A DNA stretch of 12,657 nucleotides from an uncultured archaeon (GTDB taxonomy: Archaea; Asgardarchaeota; Lokiarchaeia; Sigyniarchaeales; Promethearchaeaceae), in NCBI GenBank assembly GCA_964426185.1, contig CAYRPF010000086.1, forward strand, positions 1 through 12,657. The letters run 5' to 3'. Positions within the stretch are counted from its first letter, which is position 1; each line of letters opens with the position of its first letter. Below, piece after piece: positions 6,248-6,583 of this stretch. The notes beneath the pieces were generated by a model. The model did no database searches, was not told the origin of the DNA, and was given only the letters and a program-made list of their open reading frames with translations. Position numbers and translations under genes: made by a program.

Positions 6248-6466
6248 ATGGTTGATATTGTTATGCAGAGTGCAATAACCTGTCCCTACTGTGGAAACAA
6301 AAAAACTTACCCGCTTTCTGAGACACTTTGAACCCAGCACTTAGAATGTGAGTTCTGCGGTAAATTGATCAAAGGCCATATGAACCCGCATGGTTGACCT
6401 TGAGTGTTCTGTACTTACGGAGATGTGCCTTGAATTGCAATTCAACGGAAAGCTCAAAGTTTTTAA
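6248..6466 (+). CDS. GDCCVxC-family (seleno)protein with four selenocysteines (U28, U50, U52, U62), 72 aa
   Basis: MVDIVMQSAITCPYCGNKKTYPLSETL-U-TQHLECEFCGKLIKGHMNPHG-U-P-U-VFCTYGDVP-U-IAIQRKAQSF*. UGA at 6329, 6395, 6401 and 6431. Matches the family pattern S.ITCP.CG...C....C..CG......GDCCVFCSYG.VPCPPIQ. SECIS downstream. Confidence 0.9.
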
Positions 6467-6482
6467 TATATTGTACAGAAGT

Positions 6483-6564
6483 GATGCGTATTCTAATGTA
6501 ATCATCTGATGAAGAGAAATCTGAAACCCACCTATTGGGAAGTTTCTTTGAGGGAATGCCCATT
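6483..6564 (+). promoter_or_regulatory. Eukaryote-like type II SECIS element in the 3' UTR of the 4-Sec protein
   Basis: AUGAA (6509-6513), helix GAGAAAUCU/AGUUUCUU, AAA (6524-6526) 11 nt after AUGA, apical mini-stem CCCA/UGGG, 3' core UGAG (6549-6552). Possible lower helix GAUG-C-GUAUUCU/GGAAUGC-C-CAUU. Confidence 0.88.
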
Positions 6565-6575
6565 CGGATTATATA

Positions 6576-6583
6576 TTTTTTTT
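6576..6583 (+). terminator. Oligo-U terminator candidate after the SECIS
   Basis: T8 run about 12 nt downstream of the SECIS stem. Confidence 0.5.

Follow-up and report, generated by a model that had tools for sequence, protein, structure and literature searches.

Prokaryotic selenoproteins are described as containing one selenocysteine (Sec) residue and rarely two or three (PMC11227280, PMC13188914). One bacterial family, the NCBIfam family NF041374 (GDCCVxC), is the 'hypothetical protein GOS_B' of Zhang and Gladyshev (2008), a selenoprotein family with no functional evidence (PMC2398784), which is listed with a single Sec in a 2026 review (PMC13188914). Five selenoprotein families were given for Loki/Laz by Mariotti et al. 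(2016; PMC4989117) and seven for the Asgard archaea by Huang et al. (2024; PMC11227280), the GDCCVxC family not being among the latter; the former study also described the HdrA-VhuD of Lokiarchaeota, in which a single Sec insertion sequence element of the Lokiarchaeal type (lokiSECIS) serves up to six UGA codons. Here we report a 72-codon gene at 6248-6466 (+) of a 12,657-nucleotide stretch of archaeal DNA (GenBank contig CAYRPF010000086.1, analyzed in its entirety and hereinafter the window), which, as judged from sequence, is in all likelihood a real four-Sec gene of the GDCCVxC family furnished with its own eukaryote-like SECIS, its product having a probable role with soft metal(loid)s. The family, the type of SECIS and the recoding of multiple UGAs by one lokiSECIS are each known; their combination is absent from the literature searched, in which the name 'GDCCVxC' does not occur and no function is published for the family.

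The gene runs from ATG6248 to the TAA at 6464-6466 when TGA is translated as Sec (U). The product has five Cys (C12, C15, C34, C37 and C55) and four Sec, namely U28 (UGA at 6329-6331), U50 (6395-6397), U52 (6401-6403) and U62 (6431-6433), the last of these lying 75 nt 5' of the SECIS core. It displays two CxxC motifs, followed by G-U-P-U-V-F-C and VP-U-IAIQ; the coordinates, the frame, the four UGAs, the five Cys and these motifs had all been given exactly so in an earlier inspection of the DNA made without database searches (the sequence-only reading). The standard list of open reading frames (ORFs) splits the frame at its TGAs, so the gene is absent there: it belongs to those that are overlooked by gene callers or decoded with the wrong code. 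Metagenome contigs from four independent studies match the region, and the only differences are two single-nucleotide polymorphisms (SNPs), 6379 T>C (His44) and 6421 A>G (Gly58), both synonymous and the second situated 3' of three of the UGAs.

Membership in the family, as proposed by the sequence-only reading, is borne out by profile comparison: with U read as C, the protein scores 48.9 bits against NF041374, above the curated NCBIfam cut-off of 40, with residues 8-67 matching profile positions 1-57 of 58. A word-index protein search returned no homologs; an exhaustive search did recover them, 354 in number. In alignments of 20 and of 126 sequences C12, C15, C34 and C37 fall on invariant or nearly invariant columns, and U28, U52 and U62 on nearly invariant Cys columns, as had been claimed for the latter three: U52 takes the column of the second Cys of the family's CC pair and U62 that of the Cys in the VPC column. 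P51 aligns with the first Cys of the pair and U50, part of the clade-specific insert NPHGU, with the preceding Asp. The shift of the vicinal CC to UxU, also suggested earlier, is hence visible in the alignments, beside a three-residue insert. The signature GDCCVxC reads G-U-P-U-V-F-C here, and retains the G, the second C (as U52), the V and the last C; because the U-P-U variant is constant across the whole Sec-bearing clade, we regard that clade as a divergent subclade of the GDCCVxC family. Like GOS_B, these proteins are about 60-75 residues long and share the CxxC...CxxC ribbon, the Cys columns 28, 52, 55 and 62 and the V-x-C-x-Y-G-x-x-P-C tail. Unlike GOS_B, which has no Sec or one, the Lokiarchaeal protein has four (rarely five), shows UxU in the place of CC along with the three-residue insert (NPH) containing the invariant His48, and has an archaeal/eukaryote-like element in the 3' UTR, whereas the bacterial SECIS is in-frame.

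The three closest homologs are Lokiarchaeal copies on short contigs of the ENA, which bear W at exactly the four UGA sites; the other homologs aligned are all-Cys. These W-bearing copies, products of an automatic code-4-type call, are what might speak for an explanation in which the UGAs are not Sec at all, the locus being instead a decayed pseudogene, non-coding, or one in which UGA specifies another residue such as Trp. In a six-frame search over 400 Asgard genomes the four-TGA form was found in 27 genomes from two families of the window's order (31-55% identity), one genome having five TGAs, and all-Cys GDCCV(F/Y)C forms were found in three other Asgard families. Apparent one-TGA forms in another Asgard family were rejected, since their TGAs proved to be ordinary stop codons. 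A degenerate DNA pattern, which left U28 and U62 outside the searched positions, added about 60 copies on metagenome contigs; four of these belong to LAZR01, the assembly from Loki's Castle, and others to named metagenome-assembled genomes (MAGs) such as bin41 and Loki_b31. Seven of its 70 matches were discarded as high-GC chance matches. Taking the Promethearchaeales genomes and metagenomes together, TGA is present at all four Sec sites in every one of 65 distinct relatives (65/65), and across these cores U28, U50, U52, U62, C34, C55 and H48 are invariant. The alignment of the window's protein with relatives is gapless from C12 onward. The ratio of nonsynonymous to synonymous polymorphism (pN/pS) 3' of U28 is 0.18 in the same-genus pair, in which synonymous sites are saturated, and 0.24-0.58 in other pairs, and each of the segments between UGAs is constrained in most pairs; the frame is thus under purifying selection after each UGA. 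The homolog comparison that the sequence-only reading had called for therefore gives UGAs that align with Cys or UGA and a frame kept beyond every one of them. In single lineages a fifth Sec replaces one of the zinc-ribbon Cys: C37U (L017, in G006), C15U (L133, on LAZR01001262.1) and C34U (one contig, L123).

The genome to which the window belongs (as contig 86 of a 3.26-Mb MAG, 92% complete, with 34% GC) speaks to the same point. Its ortholog-bearing relatives are Candidatus Harpocratesius repetitus FW102 in the same genus and Promethearchaeum syntrophicum MK-D1 in the same family; since these are of that kind, the host is a Loki-type Asgard archaeon (Promethearchaeales), and the same-genus genome upholds the Lokiarchaeal origin supposed from the letters. 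TGA ends 252 of 1400 long ORFs in the genome and is therefore an ordinary stop here. The Sec machinery that was to be looked for is present: a tRNA-Sec(UCA) (51 bits) with the 9/4 archaeal/eukaryotic fold, SelB (248 bits versus the NCBIfam cut-off of 242 for TIGR00475), SepSecS (439 bits), a full-length PSTK-like gene (100 bits, below the strict cut-off), and SelD with one in-frame TGA, along with a VhuD with two. The profile PF21208 (euk_SelB_III) found no match in this genome, nor in the control genomes, and is hence uninformative. With TGA a normal stop, full Sec machinery, four TGAs and the frame kept over 65 distinct sequences under purifying selection, Cys in the same columns of relatives, and a SECIS solely behind the TGA forms (see below), we consider it extremely improbable that the UGAs are anything other than Sec codons; a pseudogene and TGA as Trp in particular agree poorly with the conservation of the UGAs, the constraint and the synonymous SNPs.

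Downstream of the gene, descriptor matching and folding identify a putative Loki-type (eukaryote-like) SECIS of type II at 6496-6574 (+). Its outer helix 1 pairs 6496-6503 with 6567-6574; the core AUGA (6509-6512) begins 42 nt after the stop codon and is followed by an 8-bp helix 2 (6513-6520 with 6542-6549), an unpaired CUGAAA with its AAA at 6524-6526, 11 nt after the AUGA, an apical mini-stem of 4 bp (6527-6530 with 6536-6539), the 3' GA (6550-6551), and a side hairpin (6552-6561) inside the outer helix in the 3' half of the internal loop. The descriptor used calls for AUGA, a helix of 8-10 bp in which no more than one pair may mismatch, AAA near the beginning of the loop, and GA after the helix. 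Over the 6.5 Mb to which the two strands of the genome amount, it matches 287 times, i.e. about once per 23 kb; in the window it matches only twice, each time just 3' of a conserved TGA-containing ORF. Given this background, the location of both matches behind TGA-containing ORFs places the element beyond chance. The canonical fold (-16.3 kcal/mol) is the optimum when the core is constrained to be open, 0.3 kcal/mol above the free minimum free energy (MFE), and the apical arm folded alone takes the same structure. Plain folding of 6467-6590 gives a different MFE structure (z = -1.4), which is not decisive because kink-turn pairs are absent from the folding model. Thus, the claim of a single eukaryote-like type II SECIS in the 3' UTR stands, with one descriptor match 42 nt after the stop and the canonical fold.

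The window's element shares the spacing AUGA-N11-AAA with the SECIS elements of this genome's VhuD, SelD (which has a GUGA core) and CC/Se-like genes, and with those of relatives. It resembles the Lokiarchaeal SPS/SelD and eukaryotic type II elements in its AUGA, shorter 8-bp main stem, unpaired A's 11 nt on (PMC11227280), apical mini-stem and 3' GA, and differs from them in the side hairpin of the 3' half of its internal loop. Its 8-bp stem and 21-nt apical region depart from the type I geometry (a 9-bp stem with an 11-nt loop ending in G). Behind the H. repetitus ortholog, at 108 nt from the stop, stands an element that shares the type II architecture and takes it as the unconstrained MFE; most positions of its helix 2 differ from those of the window, with pairing retained. 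Compensatory changes affect seven of the eight pairs of helix 2. In other genera the gene is followed by the published lokiSECIS form, in which AUGA and GA flank a stem of 9 bp whose loop of 11-12 nt starts with A's and ends in G, such that type II elements stand behind the four-Sec gene only in the two Harpocratesius genomes and most relatives have type I. By descriptor and inspection, a Loki-type SECIS follows all 26 of 26 Sec forms (22 AUGA_GA, three AUGA_AA and one AAGA variant) and none of 11 all-Cys Asgard forms. The core variants seen behind the gene are AUGA...AA (L074, L076 and L078) and AAGA...UGA (L017). We also built two covariance models, R1 from nine relatives and R2 from 29 elements, both containing family-specific flanks and type I elements; R1 recovered the SECIS of 13 further relatives that were not used in its training.

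An A/T-rich TATA-like box, recognized from sequence at 6219-6229 (+), lies about 20-30 nt 5' of the ATG, and this position suggests a leaderless or nearly leaderless archaeal mRNA. At the other end, a T8 tract (6576-6583, +) is the likely archaeal transcription terminator, similar U-tracts being found 3' of the SelD and CC/Se-like SECIS elements of this genome; the gene is likely transcribed as a monocistronic mRNA of about 335 nt that carries both the coding region and the SECIS and ends at the T8. A search for data sets containing this stretch returned DNA contigs only, with no RNA run among them. Two further features are seen at the 5' end: a mini-ORF of six codons (6235-6255, +; ATG 6235...TGA), which overlaps the start codon of the four-Sec gene in another frame, and an in-frame TGA four codons 5' of ATG6248.

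We propose that UGA codons 28, 50, 52 and 62 would be read as Sec by the archaeal/eukaryote-type machinery (tRNA-Sec, SelB/EFSec, PSTK, SepSecS and SelD), with the one type II SECIS in the short 3' UTR, 76-180 nt 3' of the four codons, directing all of the recoding. Actual insertion of Sec at all four positions is what the pattern of conservation leads us to expect. In the relatives the last Sec UGA lies 38-75 nt 5' of the SECIS core (141 nt in H. repetitus), and the UGAs that act as stops lie 8-18 nt 5' of the core or overlap it; these distances fit the minimal-distance rule proposed for the lokiSECIS (PMC4989117), as in other Lokiarchaeal multi-Sec genes where a UGA very near the SECIS is a stop. 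In L069 and L071 the UGA stop codon is located within the AUGA core itself. The use of one 3' AUGA...AAA...GA element for several upstream UGAs is shared with Lokiarchaeal HdrA-VhuD and PrxL.1 (PMC4989117), from which the four-Sec gene differs in belonging to another family, in its far higher Sec density (four in 72 residues, two UGAs being one codon apart) and in having every UGA within 180 nt of the SECIS.

Recoding of multiple UGAs from a single SECIS was thus rightly anticipated on the side of mechanism, with HdrA-VhuD as its precedent; the precedent actually invoked, selenoprotein P (SelP), holds less well. SelP does show several recoded UGAs per mRNA and Sec clustered near the C-terminus. 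Its N-terminal part is a Trx-like UxxC domain, and the protein leaves the cell to transport selenium. It also has two SECIS elements (PMC4989117), whereas the present gene has one, and its product has no Trx fold, no visible signal peptide and no homology to SelP. The related suggestion, of a SelP-like function in storing or carrying selenium, draws on the very high Sec density of four in 72 residues, and five in some relatives. Against this, the Sec positions are exactly conserved and match the functional Cys of the all-Cys family, and signal peptide, Trx-like domain and second SECIS are all absent from the protein or locus. Since the Sec positions are conserved and paired with Cys, a defined site rather than a bulk selenium cargo is indicated; storage, for which we accordingly find no support in the comparison, is very unlikely.

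An AlphaFold2 model built with 126 homologs (pLDDT 91.7) contains four short strands (7-11, 18-22, 31-33 and 40-42) and two helices (53-57 and 63-71), which predicts an N-terminal zinc ribbon of four Cys with a short helical tail behind it. Of the family's five further conserved thiol positions, four are occupied by Sec (U28, U50/U52, U62) and the fifth by Cys (C55). Their conservation suggests that U28, U50, U52, C55 and U62 may cluster into one site. Alternatively, with the gene and its four Sec taken as real, the product might serve in redox chemistry and not in metal binding, acting as an oxidoreductase of selenols and thiols or as a small electron carrier, the latter for instance with a center of the Fe(Cys)4 or Fe-S/Se kind. 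Rubredoxins use a CxxC...CxxC ribbon to hold iron, and the ribbon of the four-Sec protein might be able to do so in a similar manner. Most selenoproteins are oxidoreductases with a catalytic Sec (PMC4989117), the UxU together with C, as well as U28 and U62, could pair as a selenylsulfide or diselenide, and in three loci a thioredoxin-like gene of the MTH895/ArsE family is directly upstream. Set against these points, the protein has no Trx fold and, at its four core Sec sites, no UxxC/CxxU redox box, nine conserved thiols per about 60 residues exceed the needs of a redox couple, and in bacteria the gene closes merR-merT-merP operons, the place expected of a metal acceptor. We rate a redox role as possible but rather unlikely.

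The genomic contexts of the family indeed suggest a connection with metals. The GDCCVxC family occurs on 353 plasmids, and at five of the seven plasmid loci read the gene comes directly after merT and merP (or a gene resembling merP). Four of the five have merR in front; the remaining one has merB ahead of merT and, behind the GDCCVxC gene, an FAD oxidoreductase. One further match overlaps a MerT annotation and one metagenome copy overlaps the end of merF. On the archaeal side, about 20 Lokiarchaeal contigs carry on one strand, in this order, an arsM (NF008823, 357 bits), one or two genes of a family with adjacent Sec-Sec ('UU') and the four-Sec gene, with a SECIS detected by R1 behind the UU genes and the four-Sec gene in every locus searched with it; three Lokiarchaeal loci show the sequence MTH895/ArsE-type thioredoxin-like gene, four-Sec gene, wHTH-MerB/SaoL-like gene. 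On account of the bacterial mer operons and these ars/mer-type neighbors, binding or hand-over of metal(loid)s is the likeliest role: we lean, if only somewhat, towards a protein of the cytosol that binds, chaperones or sequesters thiophilic metal(loid)s, for example Hg(II), organomercury or As(III). In such a protein, selenolates in the place of thiolates would allow tighter binding or faster exchange of metal(loid)s. Being small and Cys-rich, it could be compared to the mercury-handling thiol proteins of mer operons (MerP, the NmerA domain, the cytosolic Cys pair of MerT), the bacterial gene's place after merT-merP being that of a plausible Hg(II) acceptor. However, its predicted fold is a zinc ribbon with helices and not HMA, and, unlike the classical metallothioneins, it is modeled as a folded protein with aromatic residues and 12.5% Cys plus Sec.

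The UU proteins are about 150 residues long with the motif H-A-D-U-U and have no Pfam or NCBIfam match. The genes are found at L048:1900-2352 (+) (in G041), on L067, L079 and L081, and on about 18 metagenome contigs, where they stand singly or as a tandem pair, flanked by arsM on one side and the four-Sec gene on the other; model R1 detects a SECIS behind each copy in G041, G208 and G195, the genomes in which it was run. The ORF in G041 lacks an ATG, GTG or TTG start and follows directly after the TAG stop of arsM, a layout reminiscent of NF041536 and NF041537, bacterial selenoproteins in which ArsM and UU are fused. A distant homolog with C-U-U is encoded in the window's own genome (contig C42, approximately 1990-2560).

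Several observations count against the preferred interpretation of the four-Sec locus, whether in its molecular or its functional part. The proposal of the sequence-only reading that the protein handles Hg or other soft metals finds its support indirectly, in the bacterial mer operons and the ars/mer-type neighbors of relatives, and lacks it at the window: the gene's neighbors there are an ABC permease, a tRNA-Trp and a multi-copy 137-residue protein, with nothing metal-related, and the locus is outside any mer operon, unlike the placement of the bacterial members. The Lokiarchaeal MerB-like and ArsM neighbors, used as tblastn queries, found no homolog in the 92%-complete genome, and the all-Cys Asgard forms have neighbors without a metal theme. 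The absence of PF03243 (MerB) matches from this genome is uninformative by itself, since the control genomes gave none. The GDCC motif is not retained to the letter, U50 standing for D and P51 for the first C, and Foldseek comparison of the AlphaFold2 model to the PDB gave generic zinc ribbons only (E > 0.4). As for the SECIS, no SECIS family of Rfam matched anywhere in the window at E<=10, and R1 and R2 both missed the window's element even with filters off, its helix 2 being AU/GU-rich. The same two models also missed the SelD element of this genome and gave only E ~1 for that of VhuD; because they are over-specific (in their flanks and type I geometry), we do not consider the misses decisive.

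If the preferred reading of the protein as a selenolate-using metal(loid) binder holds, it might represent the first case in nature of a protein organized around a multi-selenolate metal(loid) site, serving as a 'seleno-metallochaperone' or trap in a Se-dependent pathway, which we put forward tentatively as a minority prospect. The four-Sec protein, the UU selenoproteins and the ArsM/MerB-like enzymes would then together constitute a Promethearchaeales-specific Se-dependent handling of As and Hg, and the lineages with a Cys-to-Sec replacement in the zinc ribbon would imply that all nine ligand positions participate in a metal-chalcogenide cluster. With four to five Sec per approximately 70 residues, this is the prokaryotic protein of highest Sec density found in the literature searched. 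It is missing from the published lists, yet LAZR01, the assembly on which the 2016 study drew, has the gene, and so do bin41, the 'record' MAG, and P. syntrophicum MK-D1, an organism in culture; its presence in the latter, near 3,273,937-3,274,140 of NZ_CP042905.2, makes it experimentally testable. It further offers a compact natural test of how an archaeal, eukaryote-like SECIS operating without SBP2 recodes closely spaced UGAs (UxU) while ignoring those less than about 20 nt away. What is new at the window comprises the genus-level type II variant of the SECIS, the stand-alone locus, the population SNPs and the zinc-ribbon variants with a fifth Sec.

Among the other features of the window, a tRNA-Trp(CCA) gene (5909-5981, -) is divergent from the four-Sec gene, and a candidate structured RNA (6034-6193) is located between the two. 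The gene for the 137-residue protein (6905-7318, +) has no family match, is conserved 3' of the four-Sec gene in the same genus and has paralogs on C28 and C23. It was tried as a functional partner and rejected, as it is multi-copy, has no Pfam match, and in other lineages lies kilobases away on the other strand. An 82-residue ORF (2856-3104, +) matches only positions 105-178 of 260 in PF03313 (serine dehydratase alpha, SDH_alpha) and looks like a gene remnant, no TGA read-through lengthening it. Finally, a second hidden selenoprotein gene is observed at 1066-1365 (-), encoding 99 residues with one UGA (U33, in the motif R-G-U-C-G) and matching weakly to the 'CC/Se motif family (seleno)protein' NF041239 (30 bits, with a cut-off of 40). 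It is followed by a type I Loki SECIS at approximately 975-1056 (-), with AUGA at 1044-1041, GA at 1012-1011 and an outer helix of 1056-1049 paired to 982-975; it also has a side hairpin, and a U-tract is present.

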